DNA from: an uncultured Planctomycetia bacterium
GTDB lineage: Bacteria > Omnitrophota > Gorgyraeia > 2-02-FULL-51-18
NCBI GenBank assembly: GCA_964606485.1
Contig: CAZSGP010000004.1
Location: 230,376-294,375 of the forward strand
Reading direction: 5' to 3'
Length of the DNA stretch: 64,000 nucleotides
In this document: positions 38 to 63,011 of the stretch, one piece after another
How positions within the stretch are numbered: the first letter of the stretch is position 1
How the letters are laid out: each line of letters opens with the position of its first letter
Notes under the pieces: generated by a model
Seen by the model: only the letters and a program-made list of their open reading frames with translations
Database searches by the model: none
Told to the model about the DNA's origin: nothing
Position numbers and translations under genes: made by a program

Positions 38-3000
38 ATGGGTAAACGTTTAGTGTTGAAAAAAGATATCGATCTCACCATCAACAAGCTCAATGAAATC
101 GGACGCGCCGCGGCTTCGGAATCAAGTCTTAAACGTTTCAGCGAAGGATTTGAAAAGCTCTCCCAGAAAAACAAACAAAAATTGGTTTTAGAAATTATTC
201 GTAAGATTCAGGAAAACAAGATGAGTGAGTACGTCGAGCTTAAGCTTGGAACCGATCTTGTTATGGGTATGGGCTTTGTGGTTAAGCAAGGCCGTGGTGA
301 AAGACTGAAGGTCTCCGATGCTCGCAAGGCCATTGCTAAAGATATTTTGAAAATGGAAGCCGCTTTGTACAAGGCCTTAACGATGCAGGACAAAACACTT
401 AATAAAGCGGTGGAACTGAATAAAGTCGCGCAAAGTATGCTGAAGAGTGTGGAGCAAATGGACATCTCTTCTATGGAGAAAGCTGCTAAAGAATTGTACA
501 AGATGCAAGATGGAATTAGCGAAAAGGATAAGAAAGAGTTGGATGAGCCAGATCCGACGGCGCCTGAGCAATGGTATAAAAAATATGAAAAAGCATTTTT
601 GGTTCAATACGTTCATCGAATTAAAGTTTTAAAAGAAAAAATCGATCAGGCTAAGGACTCCGATAAGACATCTCTTGAAGTGGAGCTGAGACAGCGCATT
701 CAAAAATTAAAAGTGACGCTACAGGAGTTTGAAGTCAAACAAAAATCCATTGAAGCGCTGGCTAAGTCGCCCAAATCGGCATGGATCAGTGCTTTGGGAA
801 CCGATAAGTTTAAAGCACTTGAAAAAGCGTATGCTGAGTTCCTCAAAGCAAAAGCGTCCGATAAAACTGAGAAGAGTCAAAAAATAAAAGAGACGAGAGC
901 GTGGGATGCGTTAGTTAAGGAGTTGTCCACACCTGATGCGAAGACCCAGAAATCTCTTACGGATTTTGCATCTGACATGGGTCTCATTGCAGATAAAGAC
1001 AAAGTAGACAGTGAGACCTTGGTCGAAATCTTTAAAATGATTGGTTCTATGCCTGACGAAGGCTTCCAGGAATTTTTAGCGCCAAATAAAAAATTAGCGC
1101 TCTACTACCAGAAAGAAGTAAACAAGCTTGAGACTGGCCTTAAGAAAGATTATGAGGCGAGTGAAGGCTTGGATATGCAGAAGCAATCTCCTGAACGTTT
1201 GAAAATTTTAGCGGAGAGAGTAAAGATCGCTTCAGAGAAAGGAAAAACCATGAGTTTTGCTGAAGCATGGGTTTACGCTAAAGAAATTTTTAAATACTCG
1301 ATTGTTGATCAAGACAAAGCCACTAAAGATTTCATTCATGGGCAGCATGATTACCGCGCCGAGCAAGAACTGATGATTCTAGGTCTTTTGGAAGGTCATA
1401 ACGTGGCCTTAGGAACCGGCGCAGGCAAAACCAATGTATTTTATATTTATCACATGATCCAGCGCTTTATACAGGGCGAGGCTTATCGCGGCAAACTCTT
1501 GGTGGAAAATGAGGACGCGATTCGAAATTATGCTGCCGAGGTCGTCGATGGAGTTACAACTGCCAATAACCGCGACACACAGATGACGATTTGGTATATG
1601 CAAAAAACTTCGGGCCTATATTTGTTCGATGGCCATAAATCCTTTTCCAACAAATCCGGCGACCGCTCAGACGTGATCGAGGCCCATAAAGATTCCAATA
1701 AACTCGTGATCATTAATTACATCAGCAACGTGCATTTGCTCAATGAAGCGGCCAAGGACGCTCAACGCGGAAAGCCGGAGCTGTGGAATGCTATGAAAGA
1801 GACGAATACGTATTCCCTCGACGAATTCCATAAATTCTTAAAGAGCAAAGAATCAGGAATGATCGCTGAAAATCTTCGCTCGGTGGATCTGCCACATGTG
1901 ATCAACGTGCTCAATGTGATCAATGCGATTGCGGATTTAAAAGCGGATGGCAGTTTTGGCGTGCGCAATGTTGTAAAAGAGTTCAAAGGGTCTAAAAAAT
2001 ACGAGGACTACGTCGCTGAGTCCAAGTCACGGCTCGGAAAAGATAAATCCGAAATTTTCTACAATCCGGAAACAACTGAGGTGTATTTGAGCGAGGCCAT
2101 GCGCCAAAACCTGGAAAAGAAGGGTTTTAGTTCCGGTATGGTGAGTTCAGTGGTTCGTGCCCTCATGGCCAAAGTAGGGTATCACTACTCCACGCATTTT
2201 GACGCCAAGACTAGCCAAGAGGTGATCGTGCCCGTTAGTCCTGAGGGGGGTAAGAGTGAAGAGTCTAGTTTCCAAGATACGAATTATCAAATTGCCTTAG
2301 CGCTGCGTGCATCCCGCGGGGATGTGATGTCGGCTCAGCGCATGGCACGTAAGAGCGATACGTCGATGTCGAGTGCCATTGCACAGAGTATTCGCATTAA
2401 TGCGCGTGCCAGCGTAGTGGGTGGTTCCGGCACACTGCAAGGGCTCGAAGGGTTGCAGAACTATCAAGTGGGTTCTCGTATTTTAAATATTTCCGGTTCT
2501 CGTCTGGATGAAGGCCGAGTAGCCAATGACCACATTTTTGAGGGAGCCGAAGGCGAGAAAAAGATTCTCGAAAAAATTAATAAATCTTTAACGGACGGTA
2601 TCAGTGTTTTGGTGGCAGTTAGCGCTAAAGAATTTAAAACCTTTGAAAAATATAAAAATGGAAAAAATGATTTATTTAACGGTTATGACGTAGTCACTCT
2701 CGACAAAGATACCACCGAAAAAGAACTCGATAATATTATTAAAGATCCGTGGGCTAAGGGTCCGGGAGGCGTTAGAAAGCCACGCGTGATTTTAATTTCC
2801 GAAAGAGGATGGACGGGACGCGATTACAAACAACTCGAAAAAGCGGCCGATAAACTAACCGACGAAGCTATTACGAAGCAATCTTTGCACCAGGTTGTGA
2901 TTGGCGCTCAAGATATAGCCGCGTCTGACTTTATCCAGCTGCTCGGTCGTGTGGGCCGTAACAATTCGGAGCTTACCGCAGAAAGATTTTTCCAGGTAAA

Positions 3001-10561: not shown

Positions 10562-10607
10562 TCTAATAATTTAATCGATTAATTTATCAAAAGTTAATCG
10601 AACAAAT

Positions 10608-10652
10608 AACCTAGTATGCATCCCGGAAGCATACTAGGTTATCCGGTTTATT
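10608..10652 (+). terminator. Candidate intrinsic terminator after giant ORF1
   Basis: Perfect 12-bp inverted repeat aacctagtatgc / gcatactaggtt (10608-10619 and 10629-10640) with a 9-nt loop, followed by atccggTTTaTT. It lies 47 nt after the TAA stop. Confidence 0.45.
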
Positions 10653-10718
10653 AACTTAAGCCAAATTAAGCAAATTCTTACTTTTGATATGACTAAGTAA
10701 AAATATTTTAAATGACCC

Positions 10719-10747
10719 TTGTAAAGCCCATTTCCGTCGTGTATACT
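10719..10747 (+). promoter_or_regulatory. Candidate sigma70-like promoter for giant ORF2
   Basis: TTGTAA (10719-10724), 17-nt spacer, TATACT (10742-10747), in the AT-rich 269-bp spacer about 85 nt upstream of the TTG start. Confidence 0.35.
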
Positions 10748-10830
10748 CTTCCTGTATGCAAGGGAAGCGGGAAAATTCTCTCAATTAATAAATTCATTTA
10801 TTATTGGTTTACTAAACCGGGGAACAACTA

Positions 10831-13800
10831 TTGAACGATATTAAATCGCTAGACAATATCGTGGTTCAAGAAAAAAAATTCCGTTCCAATTTTGGAATCG
10901 GACTGCGGAGTATTTCCGCACTGCTCGTGCTCACCTTTGTGTTCCAAGAATTTTCTCACGCGCAAGGCGGAACACCCATGTGGTCTGCGGTGACCGATGC
11001 GCGCCAAGCACAAAAATTAGATCCGTCCAAACTTTCCCAGATCACCATTCCCGTTGACTCAGGCCTCACGCGTAAAGCGGTTGCAAAGTCCGGCCAAGAC
11101 GTCATCATCAACATTCAAGACGCTCACTCGAAACTGGGCGCTCAAGAAAGCATTTCGAACATACTTGATAATCTAGTTTCGAATTACAATTTAAATCTCA
11201 TTGCCTTAGAAGGTGCAACCGATCTTGTCGACACGTCGCTCGTTTCCAGTTTCCCGATTGAAGAAGTCCGCCAGAAGACAGGCCGCTACCTATTAAAGGA
11301 AGGCAAGATCTCGGCGGGTGAGTTTTACTCCATGATTAGCGCCAAAAACGTCAAGCTCTACGGCGTGGACGACGCAAGTCTCTACAAAGAAAATCTCGAT
11401 GTGTTCCGCGCTTTGGCTGATCAAAAGAAAGTAGTTCGCGAAGAATTAAAAAATCTTTCGCAAACGCTTAAAACCCTCGAGAGCAAAGTTTACCACTCAG
11501 AACTTTTAGAAATGACTCAGAAACGTCTTCTCCAGCGCAATGGGGACATCAAGTTCACGCAGTACTGGGAGCATTTTAGCGGTTTAGCCAAGTCGCACCA
11601 GGTGGATTACTCGAAGTATGTGAATCTTAAAAAATTGTCCGACACGGTTAGTTTGGAAAAGGAAATTGATTTCCGCGCGGCGGGCTTAGAACGCGACGCT
11701 CTCGTCAACGAGCTCGGCAAAAAATTAGGCAAGCAAGATTTAGAGAAGCTTGTTCTCGAAGCACTTCAGTTTAAACAAAATAAAATTACGCCCGGCGCGT
11801 TTCACGCAGACTTAGCCGCACTTGCGAAGTCCGCTAACATTGATCCATCCGAATACAAAAACGTTATTTTGTACGCCCAGTACGTGGTGCTCTACGAAAG
11901 CATTGACCTTATTGCCATTTTTGACGAAGTCGAAGCATTTGAAAATGAATTAAAGTCAGCGCTGTTTGTAAATGATGACGAAAGAGCGCTGTCGGATCTG
12001 TCACACTGCGTTCGGATTTTAAGCCAACTGCTCGATACGGTTTTATCTAGCAAAGATTATGAGTTTTATCAGGAACACCGCAATGCCTGCGAAATTTCGA
12101 AAATTGAAGCCACGCTCAGCGCGCTGAATCAAAAATACAACGTATCCGGATCGCGTGTGAATTTTTCAACGCTCAAAGCGTCGATTCCCGATGCTCAAAA
12201 GTTTTACGAACTCGCAAACCGCCGCAACAAGGCGCTGATGGAAAATACACTCAAGCGCATGAAAGAACAAAACGTTCACGTGGCCGCACTCGTCACCGGA
12301 GGTTTTCACTCTGAAGGCATTGCGGAGCTGCTGGACCAAGAAAAATTATCGTACTTGGTCGTCATGCCCAAGTTCGACGAAAAATCTCCCGACCGTCCTT
12401 ACATTGCAATTTTGACACAGAAACCCAGAGAGTACGAAGAAGCGTTTAAGGATTCGGATTTTTATTTGGCGGCCCAGCCGTTATTTGATATTGCACGGTT
12501 TTCTTCCGTAGGTGATCGCAGGGAGTTAGCACGTGTGCTGGGTGGCGTGATCGGTGTGTCGAAGAAAATTTTAGGTTTAGGACAACTCGATGCCGAAACT
12601 GTTCAAAAAGCCGTGGAAAATTATCAAACAAGAGTGTCGGCGCTTCCCGCGGGAATCACGCCTGTTGTTTCGGTGGACGATTGGAAAACTATTCTCACCA
12701 CCACCAAAGTGGCCAAGCAAGGCGACCGTTATGTGGTCAGTGTTGACGGCGCCGAATACGTTTATGGATTAAGCGACGACGCCAAAGAAATCACCGACAT
12801 TCAAAAAGTCACGTCCGGCTCGGCACGCACGACAATTAATTTAGAAATTGCAGAAAGCGCCAAAAAAACTTTTTCGGAATTAAACGCGACTGACGAAGCG
12901 AAAATTATTTCCCGCGTGGTGGAGGCTCTTGCAGTTCGCGCCCAATCCGAAACCATTACCGAAGAACAAATTAGAGCCAAGATTATTCCGATTAGCCGTG
13001 CGGCGAATGTGACGCTTGATCCCGCTGCGCAAGAAAACATTGTCAAAGCCGCTGCGGCGCTTTTGGCACAAATGTCACCGGTGGAAAAACCCATTTCAAG
13101 GCCGGCAATCAAATTAAAAGCGCCGGAAGCTCCGGTGACTGTATTAAAAACAGCACTAACGAGTCCGGTTGCAAAACCCGCGCCTTTTGAAACTCTTTCC
13201 GTAGAGCAGGGGTCAAGATTCGCTTCTCTGGGTAAATGGTTTCACGCAGCAGTTCTCATTGTCTCTGGATTTATTGCCGGATGCGTGGGCGGTTCGAGCA
13301 CGGTGAGTGTGACGCCATTTATTACTGATTTTGGAAGTGGTCAAGTACTCAATAAAAATAAAGATGCTTTTCTTGTCATAAAACTTCCGCACGATATTAA
13401 AAGACTTCAACAATTATCGGTCACGGGGGCGGATGGAAAGCAATATCTAAACTTTATGTTCCGGAACACAACCGGTTCCAACTCCATGATCAGCTCGGTT
13501 CTTTTAAGCGAGGTAGCGGACCTGAACCATCCTAGTTTTGCGGCGGGCATTGATCTTTCGAAAGGAAAGCCCACGGTGGATGACTTTGGAACGGCGCGGA
13601 TTCCGGGTAATTACACGGTTGCTTATGCCACCGGAACTCAAGAAATCATTTTTTCGGAAGTAGAAATTAATTCTTTTACTCAACCTCTGCCTTCGCTGCC
13701 AACACCTCCCGGATCTGTTTTTGTAAAAATCGAGGATAGTGATTTAGATGGCGTGATCAACACATTCCACGACAAGACACATTTTATTAGCCAAAATTTA

Positions 13801-34800: not shown

Positions 34801-37800
34801 GCCGATGTCAAAATGGCTGAAATTTTAGTTGAAAAAGCTAAAGCGGAAAAAGGAATTTCCCAGTCTCCCGAGGGCGTCGCGCTGGGTCTGGGGCTGGGTC
34901 TTCCGAGCATTGTGGTGGTGGAGTTGAGTGACCCGGTCACGCGTCTTTTGGAACTTGGCTTAAATGTATTTGGCGGCGAGAGCGCTCGTCAAAAAGCCAA
35001 CGCCGCTTATGAAGTTCAAGCCGGCATCAATCTGCTTGGCCGTGAGTACGAATTGGCTCAGGCCAATCAAGATCGTGTGGCGCGCGTCGAGTCTCTTAAG
35101 ACACTCGATAGTCTCACTCGAAATAGCATTGAGGATCTGACAGCCGTTTTAAGCCGCATCCAAATGCGCATTCAACAATTCCAAAATGAAACAAGCGCAG
35201 GCTTTTCCAAAAAGCGCGAATCGTATGGCGACGAGCTTGCGGCGATTTTCATTCAGGGCCGCATCGATGCCTTGAAGCAAAAAAATGCGCAGATCAAAGC
35301 GTCACTTGATTTTGAAATGAAAACACCGCTTCCTCAAGCGCCACCTGCGAAGTCCATTCAGATTCAAAATTCAGCGGATGCAGTTTCACTCTTCTTATCC
35401 AATAGCCCCGGCGTTTCAAACCGGCTGAGTGTTTTAAGCCAAGTTCAAAAATTCCCCGACACCTTTTCTGTGATTAGCCCGAGTGGTCTTGCCGAAGTTT
35501 TTGGAGTCAGCGGCGGCCTTGATCCGGACGGAAAATACCAGCATGTATTTAAGAAAGATGAACAAGTGACCACTGCTCAGGGCATTGTTATGACCCGTAA
35601 GCATCTGGCGCTATGGACACCCACCTTGGCTGTTGGAGCCGCCGCTTCGTTTGATTTAACGATTGACGCTCAAAGACGGGATTCCAAAGCGGGCGTGCAA
35701 ACGAGCGCACTGGAAGCCAAAGCAGAATTGGTTTCGCAAATTGTAGATCTTCAGGCGAAAGTGGCCGAATACAAAGCGGCCGCGAAGCGCTATAAAGAGC
35801 TAACGGCGCGAATTGCCCAGCTTAAGACTGAGCTCACCATGAACTTCCTTCATGTTCTTTTTGCCGATAAGGAAGAAGTTCTCCAAAAAAATAATCTTTT
35901 AGCACGTTATTCCACCGAACAATCCGAAACCCAGGCGCGTATACAGGACTTAAAGCGCGCCATTGGTCGTCAGGTTACCGGTGCTGAAAATGCTAACGTT
36001 GGAATTTCAGACCTTCCCGAAAAATCACCTGAATTTAGCACGGAAGTTATTAGCGGCAAGCTAACGGCGCTGGGTCTCGCTGACGTCGCAGAAAATGTGG
36101 CGCTTTTAAACGAGCAGAGCAAGCTTCACATTCAAAAAGCCGGTCAAAGTGTGCGTGGAGGCAGCGGAGGATTTTCTATCAATATTCCCTTCACGGTGTT
36201 TGGAAATCCGCGCGACGTCGGTCCAAAAGATAATATTAGGGCAATCGAAATTGAAAAAAATTATGGCTACTACAACCGCTCGGTCGCCTTTAAGAGTCTT
36301 ACGGATTATCTGGGTTCTGAAATCCAGACCTGGAATATTCCGGTGCTTCGCGAATACGCGCAAGGCTCAGGCTTTACCCAGCTATACGGTTCTAGTTTTG
36401 ACGACATTAAGCCTCTTTTAGGCGCGCTCTATTTTGAAGTGCCTTTCTACCGCCGGGCTGATTCTTATGAATTGGAAGCGGCCAATATTCGCCAGTCTCA
36501 AGCCAATCTTGGTGCGCAAAAGGCCAGAGACGAAGCCACTTACAGAGTCCGGACGCGCATGGCGGATTACAACAATGCAAAACGCGAACTAGAAAGCGCG
36601 CGCAATGTTCGTCAGGATGCGATCGCTCAGCTTGCATTGGCTAATAAAAAATCCGAATCAGGCCGTTACACCGCCGCTCAAAAAGCGGACCTCGCTCAAA
36701 ACGTGACCAGAGCCAATGCGCAAGTGATAGAAAATTATAAAGCGCTCGTTCAAGCGGCAGCAACTTTAGACGCGACAATCAAGAGCTTTACGCCGGTGCG
36801 CATTCAAAACGCCGATGAGTTTGAACAAGTCCGCAAGATGTCTCCCGAGGATCGTCGCCTGAATAATATTTTGGCCGTGAGCCCCGAGTTTTACGAAGAA
36901 GACAAATCCACCGATGATCTTTGGAGAACCGCGCGTTTCTGGAAAATCGATTCGAGCACTTTACCGGGCATTGAACAGTTTGTGGACGCGTCAAAACCCG
37001 CCGTTCAAACACAAAAGGATCCTTACACGCTGATCGATATGGAAGCCAGAGCTCGCGAACAGCTGGAAGCCGCACAAAAAGAAGTTTCTGTGCTCACACC
37101 GTCCGCACGTGTAGAAGCGTTCGCTGATCCTAAGGCTTACGCGAAGGCTTTGGAGGATCAGGCAAAATCGCGCCGCTTGGCGGAGACATCGCGCGTGTTG
37201 GCGAGCACTGACAAAGGCGGAGAAGGCAAAGTCGCTGCCCGTGTTGATAAGGACAATAATATTTTAGACCTTTACGACAAGATTGATGAAGTTCCGGGAA
37301 CGGTTGTTGAGTTTCCCGCTCGCACGGCTGAAGTATTTTTGAGATTAAGAGCGATGCTTGGTTCCGAAGTTCTGCTTCAAGACAAAGACCAACTCAAAGC
37401 CTTGATCAGCGAGCTTCAGGAGTTAGGTTTACCCTTTGACCCGACACAGGATGTCGATTTTTATTGGAACAAGGCTGAGCTTGAGCAGACGAAGAAGGCT
37501 AAAGATTTATTGGGTATCATTGGCTTTAGTGATGAATTTAATGACTTCACTACCGACCCGAAGATTTTAGCAAAGACCGCGCGTGTTTATCAGGTGGCGC
37601 GTGATGCACAGCGCACCTTGTCGTTCAAAATGATGACTCCTGAGGATTATGCTAAGGCTGAGTCCGAGTACCGAATCTGGGCTCAAAAAGCGCGTGAAAA
37701 TTCAGCCGTGCTTTTTAACGAAGCCAATCCCTTCGACCGCGCTCCACATATTTTATACGGCAGTGCGGTGGCCGAACGTGTTATCGACGGCCTCGCCGGA

Positions 37801-40800
37801 AATCCTGATCTTCAGCCTGTTTTCAAAGAAAGAGCGCTGGCCAACGACAAAGCACTGGTCGAAGGATCCGCCATTGTTCACCGCGCAACCGATGCTCGTT
37901 ATGAAGCGCTAGATTTTGACCCGTCTGCATTTGGACAGGTTCAAAAAGAAATTCAGGAAAAGTTGTCGAGCCTTGCGGATCAGATTTCCAAGGAAACAGA
38001 CGCTAGACTGAAATTTTATTTGATCAAACAGTATGTCGATGTCAAAGAACACAATTTGTACCAGGCCGAAGACGGCAGTTTCCGCGGCGTGATTTATGGA
38101 ACGAAGCAGGCTGATGAGACTGTGGAGAAAGTCCAGACGGCGCTTGAAGTCAGGCTAGGCCTTATCTCGGGAGCATTGGACGGCATGCCGCCGGACCAGG
38201 TCAGCGCTCTTTTTGAGGAAATAACCGGAAGCGTTGTAACTCCTATTTTCGGGTTAAACGGCGAGTTTGAGAGAGATGATCATGGAAAACTATGGGTCAA
38301 GGTGAGCGATCCAAAGCATAACCGTTTTCCGAGAGTCGATGTGTATGATTTGAACGGCAATCTAGAGGCGTCCTACATAGGCGGATCATTAAAAGTTGAT
38401 GTTGATGGAAACCATGTTTTAAATGTAAGGGCCGAGCGGGTCATAAGGGTTATAAAAACAAACACTTCTACAGGCGAGCCGTCAGAAGCTCAAATTTTCA
38501 CTCAAGAGGCCTCGGGCAATGAAATCTTAACGGGAGTTATGATTTTCTCGAAAGATGATCAAGGGTATTCGGTTGTCTCGGAAAAAACATTTCTAAGAAA
38601 TCCTGATGGACAAATAGTAACTACTGATGCAAAGGTTTTAGACGCCACGAATTATTCAAATGCCCGGTTCGTAACCAATACAAAAACGTATGACCCATCG
38701 AACGGGCGTGTTTTGGAGACGCTCACTCAGGACCCGCAGGGGAACAGACGGATTGCAGTATCTTATTATGATAATCCATCTGACCCAGACCAAGAGACGT
38801 CATCGCTGTTATATGCCGTAGACGACAAAGACAACCGGATCATGATCGGTCGAACGGAATCCCAGGGTTATGACGCGGATGGAAACCATCGGGTCAAGGT
38901 TTATACCATTCAAAATGCTAATTCCGTAACGGAAAAAATCGAAGTATATGACGCGCTTGGCCGTCTATTAAGACAAGAAATTCCAAGCGACCAGTTTAAT
39001 AAAACATTAATAAAAATTAATTACAAAGATGGTCAGGTCATCGGAAGTGAGACCTATTCAGAAGATAAAAATGGTGTAAAAACACTCCGATCTAAATCTC
39101 GCTTTGAGGGATATGACTCTAATGGAAACCTAGTTTCAATAGTGAGTGTATTTTACAAGGACAACGAAAAACCTATTTATGAAAAAGAGGAAGTTTATAA
39201 TTCATTCGGAGAACTTTTAAGTGAAACAGTTTCTTCAAACGAAGGAAAAATTATTACCGAAATTGATCGGGCAAATGGGGCGACGGGTCTCGAAGTGGGG
39301 CGTAGCACATTTTTTGAGCATCGCGACGAATTATTGCTTCCAGTGCGGCTGTTAATTTCTAGCGGCAAGCTTGTTAGTTTTAGCGACGGTTTATTCGTAG
39401 TAGAAGTGGAAGATTTTGCATCACACTCACGTCATCAAGACCGATATGACTTATCCGGTCGTCTTATAGAGAGCTATCTGAGAGATGAGGATGGAAGAAT
39501 TTTTAGAAAAACTATTATTGAATATGATTCGGATGGCGAAGAGTTTAAACGACTAACATATATTGCGCCTGACGGAGTTGTAACCAATCCTAAGCCGCTT
39601 TCAACGAGCCAAGTTTTGGCAGTGGATGAGTTCGGCGTTAAAACAGTGCAGGTAATAGAAGATAAAGATACTTATATCGTCCGCTTTGATCATATAGGCC
39701 GCCTAATTGAAAAGCAATTTGGAGGGCTCACCATCAAATTTAACCTAGACGTTATTGGTGGGGTTAGCTCGGTTAGCACCTTTTACGCTGGGGAATTAAT
39801 TAAAGAAGGAAGAACCACCGGATATATTTCTGATAAAGGGTTCTTTGTCCCCATAAATGAGTATTCCAAATTTATTAATGGCGGGGGAGCAATTGTTGGT
39901 GTTCGCACAGAAATCGAAGACAAAATTAAGGCCAAACAATGGCTAGAAGATTATGATTTTCTAGGCAATCAAATCCGTTCCATTACACTTCGTGAAAATG
40001 GCAGAGAAGTTGAAGTTACCGAAACAAAATATGATTCCAATTCGCGTCTTCCGATAGGCGGTGAAACTAATCTGTTTGATTGGGACAAGGATGCCAACAA
40101 CTTCACCGGAGTTTCAAAAAAATCATTAGCAGTTTCAAACTTACGAGTTGATGCCGAAGGGCGACGCGTATCTGTTGTAAAGAATCTCGAGCTTGATCTG
40201 GTTTGGGAAGAAATTCAAGATGGTCTGGGAAGGCGTCTGGCTAAATTTGGTGGAACGTTCGATGATTCTACCGGCGTCCTTCGTCGTACTTATGTCGAGA
40301 TTTCAGACTTTGAAGGTCTTACCGGGTCTGCCGGAGTTGCAAAAGAATCTATCTCCTATGAGTACACTGAAGGTAAAGACCTTGAATGGCACAAAGCAAA
40401 TGCCCTTAAAATTTCACGCAGTATTTTGACAAAGTTTGATCAGACCAAAGGAATCTTTGAATCTACGATTGAGTATTATGGAAAAGGCGGTTTAATCGTA
40501 GATGTTCTGTATGAAGTGCGTAACGCCGACGGACTTTTGTTGTATGCCGTAACCGGAAAGATGGAAGAAGGGCGTTTTGCTCCGCTTCATTTAATGAAAT
40601 ATTTTTATGATCGTGAGGATTTAAAAGCAGTAGGCATGGCTTCCGGTTCGGCTATTTATCAATATGCTGATGGTCTTTCTTACGAGGATTATCAAAGCCG
40701 TGGAGATCTTTTAGGGGAAACCTCTAAAGTCGTCGGAAATCCTATAAAAGTTTCCGGAGAACAAGGCGTTCAAATCACGATTGAAATTACCCGCTATTAC

Positions 40801-43800
40801 AAAAATGCGCCGGTCGAAAAATCAACCCAAGTCAAGGATGCCTATGGACGGGTCATAAGAGAAATAAAAGACAACGTTTTACAGGTCCATTTGTACGTTG
40901 ATCCGAAATTTAAAGCTCATGGAATTGCATCGGAGTCTATTAGCTATGCCTGGGATCCAAAAACGCAAAGAGTTTTATTCGACTCTTCAACCGGGAAGCC
41001 GATGGAATTGAAAAAATCAAGAGTGCTATGGAGTTTTGAAGAATATTTAGAAAAAGGTGTCATCAAATACGAAACATTAGATTTGATCAGCAAAGATGTC
41101 GAATGGGAAACCAAATTCCGCAACGGTCTGCTGGATCGCAAGTGGGCCATAGACCGGACTTCTCATAAACCATTCAACATGACTTTATTCAGGTACACCA
41201 CCGGAGAAAAAGGAAACGCATATCTCGGGATTGCTGATGACGTATATACCTACCAAACGAATGAATTTGGCGAAGCACTTGATGATGCCGAAAAGGTTAT
41301 CTCCGAGGAACCCGGAAAAGCACCTCTAGATGCGAAAGGTGTTCCAATCGGTTATTTTGAATACACACGGGTAGTTGAAGTTAAAAACGTGGCGGAAGAT
41401 AAAATTAATCCGCTGCACGTTGTCTATCAGGTTGCCGTAAAAAATGACGGACTAAATCTATTCGAACAATTTAAGGAAGTTAAGAACTTTAAGGGTGAAC
41501 TTTTAGCTAGAACCGTGGGACATAAATCTAAGGGGGATGCTGAGTTTACTCCCGAAAAATCCACTTTCTTTTTAAGAAACCCTGAAAGATTTGGACAATA
41601 TACAATCGCGGACCAAGCGGCAACCTACCAACATGATCCGACTCAAACTGTAACTGATTCTGACAAGGGCGTTTCTAAGTTTTCTGCCTACCTTACGCGC
41701 TTGTACTCGGAAGGAAAGGAGCTCCCTGAAATTGTCAAAGAGGCAGACTTTAATGGAATTATGGAGGACCGCTCTAGATTAAAAATAATTGTTAGAAGCC
41801 AGGGGGATCTAGCATTTGAGGCGCTATCCGGAGAAGTAAGGGTTGTCGCTGAGATGCTGAAAAAAGATCTGTTAACGAATGATGGTTGCCTTGTTTATCA
41901 AAAGGAAGTTCTGAAATACTTGAATGGTAAAGCAAAGCCAGTATCTGATTACATCGATATTGTTCTTCAAGGACGCTGGAAAAAATCTGTCCACATCCAA
42001 AGCAACTCTTATTCGGAAGTCCAATATGATGCTAAGAAAAATGTGGTTAGCGGTCATCGTGAAGAGGGGTTAAAAGTTATAGATCTTCATAGAAAGCAAG
42101 GTGAAAAGGGTCACCAGAAAATTAATCCGTATATGCCTAATCCGAAGATAGAGGATTGGTTAGTTTTCGACGTGGACTATAAAGATCAAAATGGCCACCT
42201 GCTCTTTAAGGGAGAGAAGTGGGTCGACGTTTACGGAAAGACCGTAGTGGATATCCAGTTCAAAGGCGATTACGTAAAAATTAAAGGGTCTGACGGAACT
42301 GAAGTCTTGGACGAAGCCCAGTACAAACAAAAACAAGCCTTGGCCGTGTATCTTTCCGATCAAGATCCTGTTGATTATGATTTTTCTCTCAACGAGGCAA
42401 ATCCATCAGCCGAACTTAAAGTGGAGAAGGACTACTCGCACAGCGATTTTATCTTTGTTTATCTATCGGGATCCGATCTTTTAAAGTCGTCTCCTGACAA
42501 AAATCCCGTTGTTAAGTTTGAAGTTAAAAGCGGCGAGGGTTCCAATCAAAAGACCGTGACGGTTGGCTCATCGGGGCAGCCATTTTGGATTCCGATCAGC
42601 GAAAACACACTGGACTATCAAAGCCGCTCGGTTCAGATGGTTGCGGAATCAAACGATCTCAACAAGCAGTTTATCTACGCTGTACCCGTCCAGCTTTTGG
42701 CTCGTCAGGGCGTGGACATTACGGATGTGCGTGGAATTACGGTTCGTTTATCGGCACCACTTGAGCCGTCACAGAACATTCGCCTTAGCCGTCTTTATAC
42801 GGCTGGTCAGAATGAAGACAAGTCCCGGCTAGTGACTTATACGCCTAGCGGTTCTAAGGACTCCTTCTTGGCAGTTGGGGAACTGACGGGTCAAAAGGCA
42901 TTTTTTGATAAAAAGACCGAAAATGACTACGGGCGCCGTATTAATATTTTTGGAGCAGACAACCGTCTGGTTGCTTCCATCGTAGACTATAAACATAAAG
43001 ATGAAGACAGCAATCTTTATACAGAGCTTCGCTCACTGACATTGTATGATCCTAGCGGAACTCACCCCATTGGCGGTGTCCTTCTAGATCCCCAAGGGTT
43101 GCCCATTGCCGGAACATTCCGGAAAATTGCAGTGGAATATAAGGGCAAAGAAAACGAATACCTACTGGTTCATGAATTAAACCCCGCGTCTGGCGAAGCA
43201 GAAACAACGGCTTACCAAGTCAATTCTTTAAATGCTCAGAAACCGCTGTGGCGCAAAGTGGGCGGCTACGTGTTTCTCCCGCGGATGGATGCGTCGGATC
43301 CAACATCCAAAAAAGCAAATTTACACTACAACACTTTGTTCCAAGTAGCCCATCGTGAGATCTTAGACCGATTCGGAGTCTCTTGGCTTTCTTATGAGTG
43401 GAAGGCTGGCGAGGGAAACATCGTCAGCTTAGATCCAAGAGATATTAGCGCGGAAAAGGCTATCGCCAACTCCAAGACGACCGAAGCGGACTTGAAGGCC
43501 GCTTTGGAAAGAGTCGATTTGGATTTAGTGCGTGAAGTCAGCGGGGAATATATGGCAAAGAGAATCGATAAACATGATGCCTTATCTTGGCCCGGATGGA
43601 TAAGCATTATCGCCGCAACTGTGATTTTATCGTGGCCGTACTGGATTCTCCGTTATAGCCGTAGAAAAGCAGCGGAATGGAAGCAGGAGATTGAAAAGAG
43701 AAAAGAAAAGGCCAAAAACGCGGATTATTTGTTTGATGTGAATAGCCCAGAATATATTCAAGCGCTTAAGCGTATGAACGAGAACGTCTTTAAAGTCTCC

Positions 43801-46800
43801 GTACGGGCTGATGGAAAATTGATTACAAGCGATGGAGACATCGAGGGCGCATTTCTCCAGCATCTCTTTTTCTTGTACGTCATGGTTTATTCTTGGCATC
43901 AAAAAGCGGGCTATCAGAGCGTTGACTTGGAAACAAAGCTTAAAGAGCTTGATGAATTAGCGAGGGCCATTTCTAAATTTTTGGCCGAGCAGGCGGCGGC
44001 GTCTAAGCATCCGGAGGATGCGGCTAAGAAAGAGAAGCATAAGAAAAAGTTAGAAACAACTCAGAAATACCAGGTGGATCAAAAATTTGACCCTCAGCTT
44101 TGGGGCTTCTTGAGTATATATCTTTCGGAGTTTAATTTAGAACTGCGCGAAATTTGGGATAACGAACGCAAAGACCCAAATTCAAAACCGGGCGATGAAA
44201 GCTTGTTTGCAGCTAAATGGAAAGAAGTCGTCAGTGAGCTTCTATCCGATTCGAACGGTAGCCGCTTAGCCGATCGAAAGTTTAATCAAGATAAATTCAA
44301 TAAATTTATAAAAGATAAAAACTTCGCGTCGGTCCCTAATTTTTACATTCAATATGGTCGCTACTTCATTCAAACAATCCCCCAGATTTTGGCGGCTATT
44401 CTTCTCTTAGGAGGAAAAATTGCTTTGGGGAGTGGAGCGGCCTCAACGGGCGGACTATTTACGGTGCTCGGATTCGCAGCAGTTGGGGTGGTTGTTGGAC
44501 TCGTGGCACTTGTTGTGAACGCTAGGAGTGAATATCAAGCGATTTTAAGTGCTCGTAAAGTTGATTCCGAACACTCTAGAGGTCGTTACTTGCCAGTTTT
44601 GGCGGCCACAATATTTACTGGAACAGCGGCAACACTGCCCTTTTTGATGGGCATGACCATTTCTATGGCCGCAACCGGACTTTTAGTGACTGCGGCGTCA
44701 ATTTTTACGATGGAAACCTTGGGGCTAACGCTCGGAAACCGGTCTTTCGTGGGCGTTGCTTATACTTATCTTCTTCGTCCACCCGCCCGCGTGGGAAGAG
44801 ATCGTGCAGTCGAATTATTCACTAAAGGCTATTGGCTTTATACAAGCATGTTTTTTGTCACCATGCTTTTAGTTTGGTCATGGTTTTCTATGAACTTTGC
44901 CAATGCCAATGCGGGACATGTGATTATTGCGGGGCTTTACGTCATTTCCGGCATGCCGCTTCTACGCTTTGGTAGCAACCAAGTGATGAGAGCTTACTAC
45001 ACTCTCTTCAAGCCCGACCGTGGGCCAAAAGAGGTAAAGGACACGACTCCACCAGCTAAAAATAATACTCAACCTGATAATTTACCAAAAGGTAAAACAG
45101 CCGTTGTTTATGTCGGAGGAAATACACTGGCTTCAGATGTGAGATCGCTTGATGATAGCTCGGATGACAAAAAGATTATGGCTGCTCATGAGAAAACTTA
45201 TGAAAAAGCCATTTCTCAGCTTTTAAATCACACCGAAGGAAAAAATACCTTGCTGCTCTTTTTGGAAGACGCAAAAACGAGACTTAAAGACATGAAGGTT
45301 GATACGAATGATCGCAAACAGATTTTAGCAATTTTTTCGGATTGGCTCATGGTGCTTCGTAAAGCCGAGCTTCACGGGAATGCATTAAAGAAACGCGTCA
45401 GTCTGTGGAATTTGCGCCAAATGGATGATCCCAATATTCCGGAGGCACTAAGAGTCGGTTTTGATTTGAACCCCGAGGATAAACTAAAAGTTAAATTTGG
45501 TTGGGAGCTTCAACGTTACTTAATCGATCAATTAGGTGTTGGTGGTTCGAGCTTGAACACGGGTATCAACATGGCAGCTCAAGCAGAAGCATTCAATAAG
45601 GCCGGTATGTCGGATTCGGTGGTGTTTCATTTGGTGATGAATAAATACGAAGACCATAATGATAACCAGACTCCAAATAAGCTCGATCTCAATTCTAATT
45701 CAAAAGAAAGCCGTGAGCTAAACCAGCGCGTCCTGCTAGCGTCATTGATTGACTATCTGATGAGTGCCGGAACCGGTAAGCCGATGGGTTCCTCAGCATA
45801 CGTCATGTATGATCATACTGTGTTTGGTATGAAGTCCGCGGCCATGAATGCTATTTTTATGAAGCCTGAAGATATTCCTCAGCTTCGCTCCATGGTGGTG
45901 ATTGACCGCAATGCCACGGTTTCGGATCTTGATAAATATGTGGAAGACGTTAGACGGATGTCCACAAACCCACACATGGCCATTATTACAACATTTCGCA
46001 ACACGACTTATACATTAGACGTGACGGGAAATGCCAATGAAGGAATTGAAGCGGGTCACGGGCAAAATTTGATCTCTTTGCCGAGTGGCTTAGGAACGGG
46101 TTGGGGTAATATTATCCGCGTTCCGTTTACAGAGCTCATGCAGCAATTTGCCGATCCGGATTCTCCATTCGTGTCTTTCGCCGGTGATTCAAAAAATATA
46201 AAAGATATGAATCAATTATTTGGAATGATCGGATTTGCTCCAAATGCTATTGGAATTAGCGAAGATAACTGGGCGGCGGTTCAACAAAATCACAATCTCA
46301 TCGGCATGGGTTATGAGCCAGAGTACGGTGTTTCTGAGGCTACATGGACGAAAGTCAGAGAAAAACAAAGCCTTGCGGAGTTAGAAGCGGCACCCAAACG
46401 TTGGTCGAGCGGTCTTGTCCAAACGATTAATGATTTGATGAACCAACAAGCATTGGAATTTGGTCCCGATTCCTTCTTTGAAAAAGAGTCTCGACACAGC
46501 AACTCGGACCTCTATCACTTGTCGACGATCGCATTGTTCCAAGTGGGTCTGACGGCCATATCCGCGGTCTTCGGATTTTCTCCGTTTATTGGTCTAGCGG
46601 CTATTATCTGGATGATCGGGCTCTTCTTCAATCAGATCATGATATTTAACTACTGGGCCTATCATATGAAGGTCATGGGCTTTCAAGTGGGGATGGGAAT
46701 GTTCTTTTCGCGTCGTTTGAGTGATGCACTGTTTTTTGCTAATTATAACGTGCGTATGGCGCTTTCCTATGTAATGGGAACCATCGGAGTTTCGTTAGAG

Positions 46801-49800
46801 TTTGTAATGTCCGGCGCCAAAAACGAGGACTTGCCCTTAGAAAGCATCTTATTTGGAAAGAGCATTAAAAATATTTACACGGACGCTCAAAAGGCCGATC
46901 CAAACCTCGATTTGAAGAAACGATTTGCGAAGTTGAATCTTGTAAAAAACCAAGCATTAACCCAGCTTAACATGAAGGATAATCTCGCGAGTTTTCTTTA
47001 TACATTCATTATTGGCGCCTTATTATTTGCGGCGAATGTTGGAACAATTATTTTTGCTAACGTCGATTGGAACGCAATGAACATTGTCACCATGTTTTTC
47101 TCAGTGCTTTTTTCAGTAGGCGCTATGTTTGGACCATTTTTTACCGCAGCAAAAGTTGGTCGTTCTTTCTGGAATGGCTGGGGAGATGTGTTCTCAAAAG
47201 TAATGGGTTTTGGGGTAGGCTTTACCATGTTATTCGGGGCATCATACCTTTTAGCGGCCCATGCTTTTGGTGGTTTCAGCATTCTTTGGGCATTTGTATG
47301 GACCGCGTCATTCGTAGTCCTTTCCTTGGGATTAAAAGTACTGTCAAATCCATCAGAGTGGATTAAAAAATTGCGGGCGGTAGACCTGATACCGGGGACT
47401 GATCTCGATAATAAGATTATAAAATGGACTCTAGAGCTTACATGGGTTAAAGGTTTTCTCACCTTTGTTCGTAAGCCTCAATTAATACGTTGGGCTTCTG
47501 AGATGCAAAAATCACTTTGGTTGACCGTTCTCTTAATGGGACCATTCTTATTCGTTCCCGCTCAGGCAACTCCTAAGATCCCACTTATTTCCAAACCGTT
47601 GATTGAGCTTTTTGGATTGCCGGCGCTAACGCTCTCTGGTTCATGGTTAATTTTTGCTGGGTTTTCGTTCGTGGCAATATTCTTGGCATGGATTGTATAC
47701 GCGAAGATCAAATTAGAATACGAGCAGAAGAAATTAGATAAGATTCATAACCAAATTTCTAATTTATTGGTGCAGATATCTGAAAGACTTCCGAGCTTTT
47801 CCGAGTCCGAAAGGGAGGCAGCACTGAAAGCCATGGCCGAAGTTTACGAGATTCGTTCTTATATTCGAACACTTCGTCAACAATCTGCATTGGTTCTAGA
47901 GGCAGAAGCTCTGGATAAAGCGAAGGCTATTCTCTCGCCATTCAAGATAGTTAATAGTCGTGGCGCGCGACTTGCCGAACAAGGGCTGTGGGGTCGGATG
48001 GTTGATCGTTATTACTGGTTAAAAGCGGATCTATATATGATGCTCTATGGTCAGAGGCTTAAAGATGCTCTCCGAGGAGTGGTGGCCAAACCTGATGAGA
48101 GACAGCGTTTGAACGAAAAAACCCATCTATTGGCGAGAGAGTTGGTCGCGAGTAGCAGTGTTTTATCCTCCAGAGTCGCCATCCAGCATGATTTGCCCGA
48201 CAACTTGATTCATCGGTTCGAGGATGACGCAAAATATTTACAGCGTATTTTGGATATTTTAATTGTAGATACGCGTAACGGTTATGATTCAACAAAAATA
48301 GTGAAAGAACATTTGTTCGTCAGAATGCTCGACTTAATGACCGACAAAGAAATTGACGGAACATTAAAGTTAGCGGAAGCTGCTGTCAGCAACGATATTG
48401 AGGTTTATCATCTCACGAAGGCGCTCGTAGAAGCTCGCCGACGGTTTGAAGATCGTGAAATTTATAAAAAATACATGGGTGTTATTGCATCCTTGTCCAA
48501 AAAAGGAACTGTAGAGATGCTCCATACAGCGGAGCTACTTTATCCGCTTTATCCTGGCGTCTCGGATGAAAAGCAGAACCCTCAGACTTTTGCATTTCAG
48601 AGAAAACTATACGAGAGATATGTATTGTCTATTATGGAGGAGCTTTCCAAGCATTTTACAAATATAAGCCAGAATATTGATGAGTTGCGTCCTTTGATTC
48701 GCGAAGTTTCAGACCGGGATGAGGCTATTGTGTATCTCGAGTTAGCGCTATCGATGGCCACTAAGGGCATGGAGTTCGGGATGACTTTCCGACATATTTT
48801 TAGCATACGAAAAGCGTTTCCAGGAAGTCCAATCTCAAAAGAAGTCGCAAGCGTTATTGAATCTTCAAAACGGTTAGTTGGGCAGGGAGTTAACCCAAGA
48901 GTTTATACAGGACAAGCGGTTAAGCAAATATTAATGCTTGGGAGCCAAGAAGATGAGAAAACAGCTGGAAGTCGTTTAGCTGCCGCGGAGGGCTACTTAT
49001 TGCGCATCGAGAGACTCGCGCTGGATCTTAAAGCCCTTGGGTTCGAAGGGAATTCAGAGATACCATTTATTATTCAAGAGGGTTTAAAGACGGTAACTGA
49101 TTTAAGCTCTGTTGACAAAAGACTTGAAACTCTTAAGGCCGTGGTTGTCCGTTTGAAGGCGGAAGGAATTCCGATGAACACAAGCCCGGGTCTTGAAAAT
49201 CTGGTGTCTAAGGCACTTGTTCTGGGGGGCAATGTTGATCAGTTGAGGTTTACGTATATCCCTGAAACGTCTCAAATGGTTTGGAGGCCTGGGCGTAGAA
49301 TGAATAATCCTCCCATTAGCGAGCCAGATTATCAGGAATTAGAAGTCAACCCAGCTAGGATTGAGGTTTCATTGAAGGAGAAGCGTGTGGGCGGCGCTCG
49401 CTTAGCTTCCACCAAAAACATCATCGCCGTCGTCACCCCGACAGCTGGTTTTGACGATGCCGTTTCAAATTTAGAAGAAGCTTTAGGGCCTGCCGTTTCT
49501 AAAGACACGAACATTGTTGTCGTTCGTAGCGGCGCTCGCTTCGCGAAGGCCCGTGCAGGCAATCCCGCCGTGGTCGCGATTTTGGATTTGCCGAAAAACG
49601 AAGCTGAGCAAAACATCGCCGTTTCAACGATTACGAAAGTCTTTGAAGCACGCCGTAGAGCACAGAACGCAGTGGCGGGTTTATTGGTAAAGGGCATCAA
49701 AGATTCTCAGATTCAAGACCTCATCGCTCGCGGTAAAGCGGATGAGCTGAGCATTACCAATCTTTCTGAGGCATTAAATGAAATTGAGGCCAATCTTTCA

Positions 49801-55691: not shown

Positions 55692-56543
55692 ATGAAGCCG
55701 CTCGACGGATTAACGATTGTTTCATTCGAGAGCCGCCACGCAAAGACGATGGCGGATCTGATTCGTCTGCAGGGCGGGACCCCTTTTGAAGCGCCGTCTA
55801 TGAAAGAGGTGACCCTCGAAGGAAACCAACATGTGTTTGAATTTGCCGAAAAATTATTGGCCGGCAAAGTCGATGTGCTCATTCTGCTAACCGGCGTCGG
55901 CACAAAAGCACTCGTCAATGTCCTCGAGGCCCGCTATTCGAAAGACACAATTTTAGAAGCATTTCGCAAGACGACAATTGTGCCTCGTGGTCCAAAGCCG
56001 ATACGCGTATTAAAGGAATGGGGCATTCCCTACGCGCTCACGGTGCCGGAACCCAACACGTGGCGGGAATTGTTGGAGACGATGGATAAGGGTGTAGGGG
56101 CGCAATTAATTGCGCCCATGAACGGTAAAAAGGTATACGTCCAAGAATACGGCGTCACAAACGCCGAGCTCACCGAAGGTCTTGAAAAGCGCGGCGCTCA
56201 AGTGGTCGTGGTGCCCGTTTACAAATGGGCTTTGCCAGATAATCTAGAACCTTTAAAGGAAGCAGTCCGGATGATTACTAGTCGCAAAGTGCAAGGTGCC
56301 TTTTTTACGACGTCCGTTCAAATTAAACATGTTTTGCAGGTTGCAGAAAAAATGGGTGTTGCGGCGGAGTCTTTGCGTGACGCATTCAAAAAAATAGTGG
56401 TCGCGTCGATCGGACCGGACTGCTCGGAAACCATGCGGGCCTGTGGCGTGCCGCCGGATCTTGAGCCTGAACAAACAAAGATGGCCAATTTGGTGCAAGA
56501 GATGGCGATAAAAGCAAAATCAGTATTGGAGACTAAAAAATGA
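55692..56543 (+). CDS. hemD: Uroporphyrinogen-III synthase-like protein (HemD family), tentative
   Basis: 283 aa with two half-domains: LTIVSFESR...VDVLILLTGVGTKAL and GAFFTTSVQIKHV...ASIGPDCSETMRACGV. This fits the HemD duplicated Rossmann-like layout. ATGA overlap with hemE. Product call is from context and weak motif similarity. Confidence 0.55.
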   Translation: MKPLDGLTIVSFESRHAKTMADLIRLQGGTPFEAPSMKEVTLEGNQHVFEFAEKLLAGKVDVLILLTGVGTKALVNVLEARYSKDTILEAFRKTTIVPRGPKPIRVLKEWGIPYALTVPEPNTWRELLETMDKGVGAQLIAPMNGKKVYVQEYGVTNAELTEGLEKRGAQVVVVPVYKWALPDNLEPLKEAVRMITSRKVQGAFFTTSVQIKHVLQVAEKMGVAAESLRDAFKKIVVASIGPDCSETMRACGVPPDLEPEQTKMANLVQEMAIKAKSVLETKK

Positions 56544-62975: not shown

Positions 62976-63003
62976 GAGATTGCTTCGCTTCGCTCGCAAT
63001 GAC
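62976..63003. repeat. Right inverted repeat flanking the GIY-YIG gene
   Basis: gagattgcttc-gcttcg-ctcgcaatgac. Its reverse complement gtcattgcgag...gaagcaatctc matches both ends of the left repeat, 22 of 22 terminal nt. Confidence 0.5.
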
Positions 63004-63011
63004 GGGTATGT

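Follow-up and report, generated by a model that had tools for sequence, protein, structure and literature searches.

Two giant genes and the islands within ORF2

We analysed a 64,000-nucleotide (nt) stretch of contig CAZSGP010000004.1 (assembly GCA_964606485.1, positions 230,376 to 294,375), referred to here as the window, in which two giant open reading frames (ORFs) lie one behind the other. ORF1 occupies 38..10561 on the plus strand and encodes 3507 amino acids (aa) counted from the first ATG; its frame is free of stops back to window base 2, so the gene is possibly truncated at the 5' end, with the true start maybe outside the window. ORF2 occupies 10831..50634, also on the plus strand, and encodes 13267 aa with a TTG start in a frame that opens at 10816. 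An in-frame GTG follows about 11 codons after the TTG, and translation likely begins at a TTG or GTG inside the first ~12 codons, because the first ATG (M50) would delete a signal peptide that is kept in homologues. An earlier reading of the bare sequence (the original prediction) had called two consecutive same-strand giant frames at these coordinates, and both stood.

Both ORFs are genuinely protein-coding. With the nine downstream genes as training set, a codon model preferred the annotated frame in 33 of 33 tiles of 1.5 kb (26 of 26 for ORF2), tile scores fell within the range of those nine genes, tandem DNA repeats in the window were negligible, and an open frame of 13 kilocodons at 46% GC is impossible by chance. 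From nt ~38,000 to 50634, the last third of ORF2, GC content dropped from ~0.49 to 0.42-0.45 and the codon-model score was lower; this shift begins where a region of YD-type repeats starts, and the last third may be a later-acquired block. Searches with whole proteins and with 1,000-aa tiles left ~97% of the combined 16.8 thousand aa without a Pfam, NCBIfam or PDB match.

The part of ORF1 visible in the window showed neither a transmembrane (TM) helix nor a signal peptide by hydropathy, had no Pfam, NCBIfam or PDB match as a whole or in tiles, contained no internal repeats in a Smith-Waterman scan, and had no detectable similarity to ORF2. It ends in ...ATAKSA. We regard it as a TM-free, Cys-free and probably helical partner or paralogue of ORF2. 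The 269-nt gap between the two genes (10562-10830) is strongly folded (z = -5.6) and holds two features of interest:

10606..10642, plus strand: hairpin with a 14-bp stem and two further pairs, followed by UAUCCGGUUUAUU
10719..10747, plus strand: sigma-70-like promoter match upstream of ORF2 (TTGTAA-17-TATACT), by consensus match only

The hairpin looks like a terminator, and since it is combined with a promoter-like site in a strongly folded gap, ORF1 and ORF2 are probably separate transcription units. Two perfect-stem hairpins in all (10575-10601 and 10606-10642) precede the promoter-like site.

Along ORF2 we located the following features, all on the plus strand:

10888..10962 (aa 20-44), plus strand: Sec-type signal peptide or anchor, KKFRSNFGIGLRSISALLVLTFVFQEFSHA followed by QG, called by hydropathy and aligned with the N-termini of two homologues (P0157 and the second giant of locus L016)
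10987..12474 (aa ~53-548), plus strand: conserved N-terminal domain with the motifs IINIQDAH..AQ, LEG and VTGGFHS
13240..13284 (aa 804-818), plus strand: internal hydrophobic stretch (hydropathy) with a lipobox-like IAGC end, then a G/S linker (motif FIAGC followed by VGGSS, aa 814-823)
14083..15516 (aa 1085-1562), plus strand: four tandem ~120-aa repeats found by a Smith-Waterman window scan
15562..15630 (aa 1578-1600), plus strand: second internal hydrophobic stretch, lipobox-like IIGC, then GSSGGGS (motif SIIGC followed by ACGSSGGGS, aa 1596-1609); candidate TM helix
19378..21630 (aa ~2850-3600), plus strand: A/E/K-rich helical stalk of ~750 aa, of coiled-coil or single-helix type, with long internal repeats (composition, Smith-Waterman)
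26848..27630 (aa 5340-5600), plus strand: PP2C Ser/Thr phosphatase domain (PF13672, NCBIfam Stp1, PDB)
27598..29850 (aa ~5590-6340), plus strand: conserved 6-TM module directly after PP2C, with the motifs GLPYHLF, YWFP, GMWFVQxEI and IEGDE
31303..31380, plus strand: zinc (Zn) ribbon CPRC-x10-CPAC (CxxC-x10-CxxC, aa 6828-6845), by profile match and motif
36421..36774 (aa 8531-8648), plus strand: borderline TolC/OEP-like helical segment (PF02321 at 22.3 bits, cut-off 22)
38338..40050 (aa ~9170-9740), plus strand: divergent YD/RHS-type repeat region, from motifs and sub-threshold profiles
44374..47703 (aa 11182-12291), plus strand: second membrane module with ~10 predicted TM helices (hydropathy)
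49252..50631, plus strand: C-terminal ~460 aa, ending ...AVGTAA, weakly similar to a ~420-aa domain of giants in related loci

The N-terminal domain aligned over aa 53-544 with P0157, a 2,239-aa protein cut by a contig end (1e-91 at 32% identity); the second giant of locus L016 aligned with it as well (7e-44 at 28%). The domain had no Pfam match and no match in the PDB profile search. Its assignment as Tiki/TraB/ChaN-like, from a likeness of motifs, was rejected as unsupported by either search. The four ~120-aa repeats that follow are acidic and G/S/T-rich, and their pairwise similarity is well above chance (z = 7.8-17, with none of 300 shuffles as good) except for the A-C pair (z = 3.8, reached by 1 of 300 shuffles). 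The PDB profile search with these repeats was empty, and any beta-sandwich or Ig-like fold is conjectural. A further repeat pair was found by Smith-Waterman at aa ~6900/7200; the result of a BLASTP self-comparison, that ORF2 has no internal repeats, was wrong, as the Smith-Waterman window scan found them.

The best-defined island is the PP2C domain, which scored 30.1 bits against PF13672 (cut-off 24) and 85 bits against NCBIfam Stp1, and matched tPphA (~1e-14) and PstP (1txo/2cm1, ~4e-9 to 5e-9) in the PDB. Its metal-binding motifs (ED, DGMGG, GDSR, SDG, DD) are intact, and the domain is apparently catalytically active. Six TM helices are predicted by hydropathy immediately after it, at aa 5629-6035. 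When aa 5201-6400 were searched with HMMER against 1.84 billion cluster representatives, thousands of generic PP2C matches were returned and only two proteins, P0121 and P0122, fell below 1e-30. These two (~30% identity) and P0156 (24%, a weaker match, 3,298 aa and cut by a contig end) were the homologues of the 6-TM module (24-34% identity overall), so that its only homologues among the representatives were pieces of other large or giant proteins; the PDB profile search with the module gave no match. The islands also occur at other positions elsewhere: the 6-TM module sits at the N-terminus of P0156, and in P0157, PP2C lies at residue ~2,030. Other giants, cut by contig ends and located on contigs of Omnitrophota-type metagenome-assembled genomes (MAGs), share the N-terminal domain and the PP2C/6-TM islands. 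In its sequence, ORF2 is a mosaic in which lineage-specific stretches lie between a small number of conserved islands, a pattern already published for Omnitrophota giants.

Six strict YDxxG[RNQK] motifs were found in ORF2, all within aa 9172-9708, where ~0.3 would be expected for the whole protein, alongside numerous degenerate ones (VYDALGRLL, RYDLSGRLIESY and RFDHIGRLIE among them). Family models nevertheless stayed just under their cut-offs (RHS_repeat 17-19 bits, cut-off 22; TIGR01643 15.3, cut-off 15.8). A regular-expression search of ORF2 for the RHS core motif PxxxxDPxGL was negative, the only trace being a lone DPQGL at aa 10753 without the upstream Pro. The TolC/OEP-like segment could be simply coiled coil. 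A 1,300-aa query with the C-terminal TM module found no homologue, negatives with such long or divergent queries being weak evidence. Pfam and NCBIfam searches of both ORFs gave no glycosyltransferase, methyltransferase, glycosyl hydrolase, peptidase or NUDIX domain, Rfam had no match in the window, and a viral scan had none.

Measured against these results, the module list of the original prediction survived in part. PP2C was confirmed by Pfam, NCBIfam and PDB matches and by its motifs, and both polytopic membrane modules were recovered by hydropathy, with six and about ten helices. The YD repeats held as clustered motifs with degenerate copies but not as family matches, all scores lying below the Pfam and TIGRFAM cut-offs, and the repeats called Ig-like are present, although that fold is a guess. 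Two modules fell away: for the superfamily 2 (SF2) ATPase there was no helicase or SecA_DEAD match and no DExx motif, only one isolated Walker-A-like string, and for the glycoside-hydrolase-like module nothing appeared at E < 0.5 in Pfam or NCBIfam with 1,000-aa tiles. The Pfam/HMMER survey in tiles of about 1000 aa that had been proposed yielded PP2C, the Zn ribbon and the borderline TolC/OEP segment; structure prediction, proposed alongside it, was run on two regions and produced models, but of low confidence. The idea of a membrane mega-protein was supported for ORF2, as an anchored, multi-pass chain that combines cytoplasmic-type parts (PP2C, Zn ribbon) with surface-type ones (YD, tandem beta-type repeats). 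The two ORFs may act as one system, as was also suggested there; what bears on this is the 269-nt gap with its hairpin and promoter-like site between them, the lack of detectable similarity, and the absence of a TM helix or signal peptide from the visible part of ORF1.

Gene neighbourhood, related loci and cysteine avoidance

Downstream of ORF2 the window encodes, in order, TPR, VWA, a GT4 glycosyltransferase, hemD, hemE, hemH, hemY, an acyl-CoA dehydrogenase (ACAD), a response regulator, a GIY-YIG protein and a histidine kinase. The individually placed genes were as follows:

50705..52771, plus strand: signal-peptide-bearing TPR protein, with GTG at 50705 the likely start; orthologous to TPR in the module described below (24-39% identity)
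52768..54486, plus strand: inner-membrane-tethered VWA protein of 572 aa with a TonB-like helix (WPILLALLAH), a low-complexity linker and VWA_3 (1e-12)
61869-62609: response regulator
62677-62964: small GIY-YIG protein (PF01541, 2e-16)
~63000-64000: membrane sensor histidine kinase, running off the right edge of the window

The N-terminal helix of the VWA protein reads YFWPILLALLAHAAMILAFV, to be compared with FPWPTLLSVCIHGAVVAGLL in TonB, and the pattern P-x3-[S/A]-x3-H was present in that helix in 83 of 120 VWA homologues. Named homologues of this protein were almost all from 'Candidatus Omnitrophota/Omnitrophica', with one Eisenbacteria exception. Relatives share the gene order giant - exbB - exbD - TPR - VWA - GT4 - hemD/E - hemH(-hemY) - ... 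- ACAD, which was matched in the Omnitrophica MAG GCA_022072175.1 among others, at identities of 53-65% for HemE, 74% for ACAD, 43-63% for VWA and 24-39% for TPR. By neighbour homologues and synteny the locus is assigned to Omnitrophota, which bears out the taxon suspected from the letters alone. The exact HemE of the window (56540-57553) was found in run SRR12487046, on a Logan contig of 4.4 kb (L001), and a VWA protein 98% identical to the window's (P0001) on a 3.5-kb ENA contig; therefore the organism or a close strain has been sampled elsewhere, in fragments only.

Upstream of exbB-exbD-TPR-VWA, and on the same strand, seven of nine distinct related contigs had a giant gene; the lengths were 5,242-11,114 aa, some of these genes being cut by contig ends. 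The distance from giant to exbB was 100-420 nt in four of the seven, one or two small genes intervened in two, and the seventh was available without DNA; the insertions in L015 and L016 were AAA_14 genes and an HTH gene. In the more distant L013, S8-peptidase genes take the place of the giant. Both exbB and exbD preceded the TPR gene in all nine contigs. The end of ORF2 at 50634 and the start of the TPR gene at ~50705, on the same strand, put ORF2 in the position held by the exbB-adjacent giants. A fusion of ExbB or ExbD inside ORF2 was ruled out by tblastn and profile search.

Six of the giants upstream of exbB have in common a C-terminal domain of ~420 aa (31-49% identical) that ends in ...P[IL]D[FY]...[GA]xAA; outside it, these proteins cannot be aligned with one another. 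Against a profile of this domain the last 460 aa of ORF2 scored 9.6 bits, compared with a maximum of 4.8 among 500 composition-matched shuffles and of 3.9 among 27 further pieces of 460 aa taken from ORF1 and ORF2. The GARLA segment was matched in ORF2 (independent E-value 5e-4) at the expected distance from the end, and the ORF2 terminus VGTAA resembles IGTAA, IGAAA and VGSAA of the syntenic giants. Homology of the ORF2 C-terminus to this domain is likely, not established. ORF1 gave no signal for the domain in the same comparison, and its treatment as an orthologue of the syntenic giants by way of its C-terminus, from a visual likeness (GN...PLEIF...AKSA), was rejected for want of statistical support. 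A large homologue search with the domain alignment came back empty although members are in the collection, and so counts as a weak negative; a metagenome scan added one short relative.

Every giant at the locus was seen to end in -AA or -SA (IGTAA, VAQAA, IGAAA, TGRAA, VGSAA, TRESA, VGTAA and TAKSA; window 10546-10558 and 50617-50631, and loci L002, L004, L005, L009, L012, L015 and L016). Three without a significant match to the C-terminal profile hold such an ending also (ORF1, the giant of L015, and ORF2 with its weak match), and the shared ending could be a terminal recognition signal.

The domain content at the same chromosomal position was wholly different between relatives. The syntenic giant of L005 (L005:1-6274, in GCA_022072175.1; 6,460 aa) had Pfam matches to AprA_N, WHD_AprA and Methyltransf_36, that of L016 to PIG-L, Glyco_transf_5, DHQ synthase and 2-Hacid_dh, and the others had no matches. 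L016 also carries a second giant downstream of its VWA gene (L016:11975-21719), which is at least 3,720 aa long by gene call (3,248 codons within the fetched locus) and has HEAT repeats. Pairs of giants flanking or preceding the TPR-VWA module thus recur (window and L016).

Both ORFs were strongly depleted in cysteine. ORF1 had none in 3,507 residues and ORF2 had 13 in 13,267 (0.098%), against 38 in 3,911 (0.97%) for the nine neighbouring genes, giving binomial probabilities relative to the neighbours of ~1e-15 and ~3e-39, respectively. The Zn ribbon holds four of the 13 ORF2 cysteines, and three more (C818, C1600 and C1602) lie in or next to the two lipobox-like motifs. The same avoidance was observed in relatives: there was no cysteine in the C-terminal parts of six of six syntenic giants (five of ~2,000 aa and one of 1,185 aa; L002, L004, L005, L012, L015 and L016), none in P0121 or P0122, one in 3,298 residues of P0156, three in 2,239 of P0157 and three in 3,248 of the second L016 giant. 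This avoidance may bear on the export or folding of giant chains.

A possible envelope protein and its alternatives

Our preferred reading, in which our confidence is a little above even, is that the window carries two genuine, separately transcribed Omnitrophota giant genes and that ORF2 encodes an inner-membrane-anchored, multi-pass mosaic protein of the envelope that is tied to the TPR/vWA module. From the N-terminus, its predicted order of modules would be signal peptide, N-terminal domain, four repeats, stalk, PP2C with the 6-TM module, Zn ribbon, YD region, ~10-TM module and divergent C-terminal domain. A topology compatible with hydropathy would place aa 45-1581 outside, with the N-terminal domain and the four beta-type repeats; a TM helix at aa 1582-1600 would then lead to an inside segment, aa 1601-5628, bearing the stalk and PP2C. 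After the six TM helices, aa 6036-8014 with the Zn ribbon would again be inside, and a weak TM helix at aa 8015-8033 would return the chain to the outside for aa 8034-11181, which would hold the OEP-like segment and the YD repeats, before the ~ten TM helices and the C-terminal domain. The repeats and the YD region could, at the periplasm or surface, make contact with or adhere to a partner cell or matrix, and PP2C and the Zn ribbon could serve signalling on the cytoplasmic side, so that ORF2 would form an envelope-spanning scaffold with adhesion-type modules outside and a PstP-like phosphatase inside. The giant may work with the adjacent TPR and TonB-like vWA module, the ExbB/ExbD motor being encoded between giant and TPR in relatives; we propose this cooperation because of the conserved position and the C-terminal domain.

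Several points weigh against this reading. The topology is drawn from hydropathy alone, and with a cleaved signal peptide and no TM helix until aa 5629 the PP2C domain would be periplasmic. With ~97% of residues lacking a family or structure match, function of either ORF can be suggested by sequence features only, and AlphaFold returned low predicted local distance difference test (pLDDT) values for both regions modelled (47.6 for the N-terminal domain with two sequences, 43.1 for the 6-TM module with four). ORF1 shows none of the conserved islands of the family. The C-terminal similarity of ORF2 was not significant in hhalign (P = 0.16) or by full-sequence E-value, and a hidden Markov model (HMM) of the 70-aa tail of the domain found nothing in ORF2. 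The gene contexts published for giant genes were not seen at this locus (upstream of ORF1 lies outside the window). L011 has the module and no giant gene. Neither exbB nor exbD was found in the 64-kb window by tblastn and profile search, ORF2 abutting the TPR gene directly; the link to a motor is least direct in this genome because the window lacks these two genes. Finally, the giant could lie next to the vWA module through inherited synteny and have no functional coupling to it.

That last point leads to an alternative we consider unlikely but take seriously, namely that fast-evolving envelope giants gather independently at a permissive site by TPR-vWA-hem and have no coupling to the transducer module. 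The complete difference in domain content between relatives (AprA and methyltransferase domains in L005, a multi-enzyme giant in L016, none in the others) is what a hotspot would give, as are the module without a giant in L011, the S8 peptidases in its place in L013, the AAA_14/HTH insertions between giant and exbB in L015 and L016, and the presence of giants without exbBD in the window itself. A merely permissive site, however, sits poorly with the retention of a ~420-aa C-terminal domain (31-49% identity) at precisely this position while the rest is unalignable, which points to a position-linked constraint, and with the same strand and the short gaps to exbB.

It is improbable, in our judgement, that ORF2 is a polyprotein, translated whole and then cut into smaller envelope proteins or lipoproteins. 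The two internal [IL][AI]GC ends with G/S linkers (aa 804-818 and 1578-1600, with C818, C1600 and C1602) are of lipobox type, the modules behave as independent units that occur at other positions (PP2C at aa ~2000 in P0157, the 6-TM module N-terminal in P0156), and Omnitrophota giants have been proposed to be processed by peptidases of their own (10.1101/2023.11.21.568195). In neither ORF, however, was a peptidase domain (C39, S8 or signal peptidase II) found; the lipobox-like motifs are missing from the homologues examined; and if the N-terminal signal peptide is cleaved, the first internal motif would be wrongly oriented for Lgt/Lsp. Context aside, the probability that chance gives two matches among 13 cysteines is only ~0.03.

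An equally speculative and to us doubtful possibility goes beyond the preferred reading and makes the giants of this Omnitrophota lineage the load of a motor driven by the proton motive force (PMF). The C-terminal domain would dock to TPR and vWA, and rotation of ExbB/ExbD would pull, extend or move a surface structure of more than 10,000 aa, possibly in an apparatus for adhesion or predation comparable to the Agl-Glt focal-adhesion machinery, with cysteine avoidance as a class-wide adaptation to export or unfolding. In the window, on this view, the motor genes would have been relocated and two giants would stand in tandem, as a variant of the arrangement.

We think it very unlikely that ORF2 is an Rhs/Tc-like toxin whose YD shell encapsulates a C-terminal toxin and delivers it to neighbouring cells. 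YD-type repeats do cluster over ~570 aa, RHS_repeat and YD_repeat_2x matched below threshold, composition and codon score shift at nt ~38,000 where the YD region starts, and RHS-like beta-helices are reported in Omnitrophota giants. Rhs toxins, however, follow their core immediately, whereas ~3,500 residues including ten TM helices come after the YD region here, and neither an RHS core or aspartyl-protease motif nor a recognisable toxin or immunity domain downstream was found in ORF2. Known complete shells are, besides, longer than its repeat region.

That the ORFs are artefacts, whether mis-assembled or non-coding or repetitive sequence that happens to be stop-free, is scarcely credible: their genes were not found in the public collections searched, where the only exact match was a neighbour on a 4.4-kb Logan contig, but the annotated frame won in all 33 tiles, tandem DNA repeats were negligible, independent assemblies contain homologues (24-34% identity) of three separate regions, and synteny with relatives predicts a giant gene here.

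Comparison with known systems

Giant proteins are an established feature of Omnitrophota. In 18 samples, 3,650 proteins of at least 10,000 aa were counted, the longest of 147,155 aa and 94% of them membrane-targeted; 80% of clusters were singletons, 15% of the proteins had no InterPro hit, and the median number of TM helices was 16 (10.64898/2026.06.07.730766). At 13267 aa ORF2 is thus of modest size for its class, and the original suggestion that it would rank among the largest bacterial proteins does not hold. ORF2 has a single frame of at least 10,000 codons, the size by which such giants are defined, and ORF1 at its visible 3,507 aa lies below it, with its 5' end maybe outside the window. 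Like the giants of West-Roberts et al. 2023 and Nielsen & Lui 2026, ORF2 comes from this phylum, exceeds 10,000 aa and combines a signal-type segment with TM helices scattered at the published density (~17 predicted by hydropathy in 13 thousand aa). It likewise has few recognisable domains in long unmatched stretches and is sequence-unique, and a Ser/Thr phosphatase and RHS-like beta structures, the latter described as antiparallel beta-helices, are among the contents reported for the class. Unlike the reported giants, the two ORFs carry no SecA_DEAD, C39/S8 peptidase, glycosyltransferase, methyltransferase, NUDIX, dockerin or TSP3 domain, and their context is a TPR-vWA module with hem genes, whereas published contexts have type II secretion system or type IV pilus genes upstream and pilZ and glycoside hydrolases downstream, solute-binding proteins also being reported.

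Individual types within and beyond the class were less similar. ORF2 is not of the Archaeovorin type (West-Roberts 2023), having no SecA_DEAD or SecA preprotein-binding match at E < 0.5 in 1,000-aa tiles and none of the glycosyltransferase, methyltransferase, glycosyl hydrolase, peptidase and NUDIX domains of that type, and its downstream genes are TPR, VWA, GT4, hem and ACAD, not pilZ. Nor is it of the Dockerin type: there was no dockerin Pfam match, no TSP3 motif, and a single DxDxDG string attributable to chance. It differs from type I secretion system adhesins of the RTX/Bap/LapA type in having only four divergent repeats, no GGxGxD and negligible tandem DNA repeats. With Rhs/YD proteins (Tc toxin, teneurin-type) it shares clustered xYDxxGRLxxx repeats over ~570 aa, but these fall below family cut-offs, lack an RHS core and an adjacent toxin/immunity pair, and are followed by thousands of residues and a 10-TM module. 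The phosphatase region resembles membrane-anchored PP2C enzymes of the PstP/Stp1 type in its intact catalytic motifs and the TM helices that come immediately after; unlike them, it lies at residue ~5340 of a 13-thousand-aa protein, where it is fused to a conserved 6-TM module that has no assigned family. A partner kinase for PP2C was not visible in the window.

The closest likeness for the adjacent module is to the vWA force transducers. In a 2025 study (PMC12204202) these are described as inner-membrane-tethered proteins of TonB/TolA-like topology, in which a TM helix bearing an SHLS/His motor-contact motif is followed by a disordered linker and then by the vWA domain at the C-terminus; in Planctomycetes-Verrucomicrobia-Chlamydiae (PVC) bacteria the transducer gene lies downstream of TPR and tolQ/tolR-like motor genes. 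The authors propose that these proteins transduce force as a new, PMF-driven class whose function is unknown. The window VWA matches this description, with its TonB-like helix and conserved His, low-complexity linker and vWA domain and with TPR directly upstream; it differs in that no tolQ/exbB- or tolR/exbD-like gene is present in the window and the 13-thousand-aa gene abuts TPR. The passage on transducers in PMC12204202 is silent on giant genes, no search of that paper aimed at giants having been made, and term searches of 10.1101/2023.11.21.568195 and 10.64898/2026.06.07.730766 gave no mention of ExbB, ExbD or VWA. Cysteine avoidance is likewise unmentioned in those two papers.

ORF1 and ORF2 are new, sequence-unique members of the known class of Omnitrophota giants, and their general design is typical of it. 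Three points are new: a lineage of giants is associated with the vWA module, a set of islands is conserved, and cysteine is avoided. The islands (N-terminal domain, PP2C with the 6-TM module, C-terminal domain) show where selection acts. The association with vWA, TPR and ExbBD gives the Omnitrophota giants and the module, both orphan systems, a testable partner.

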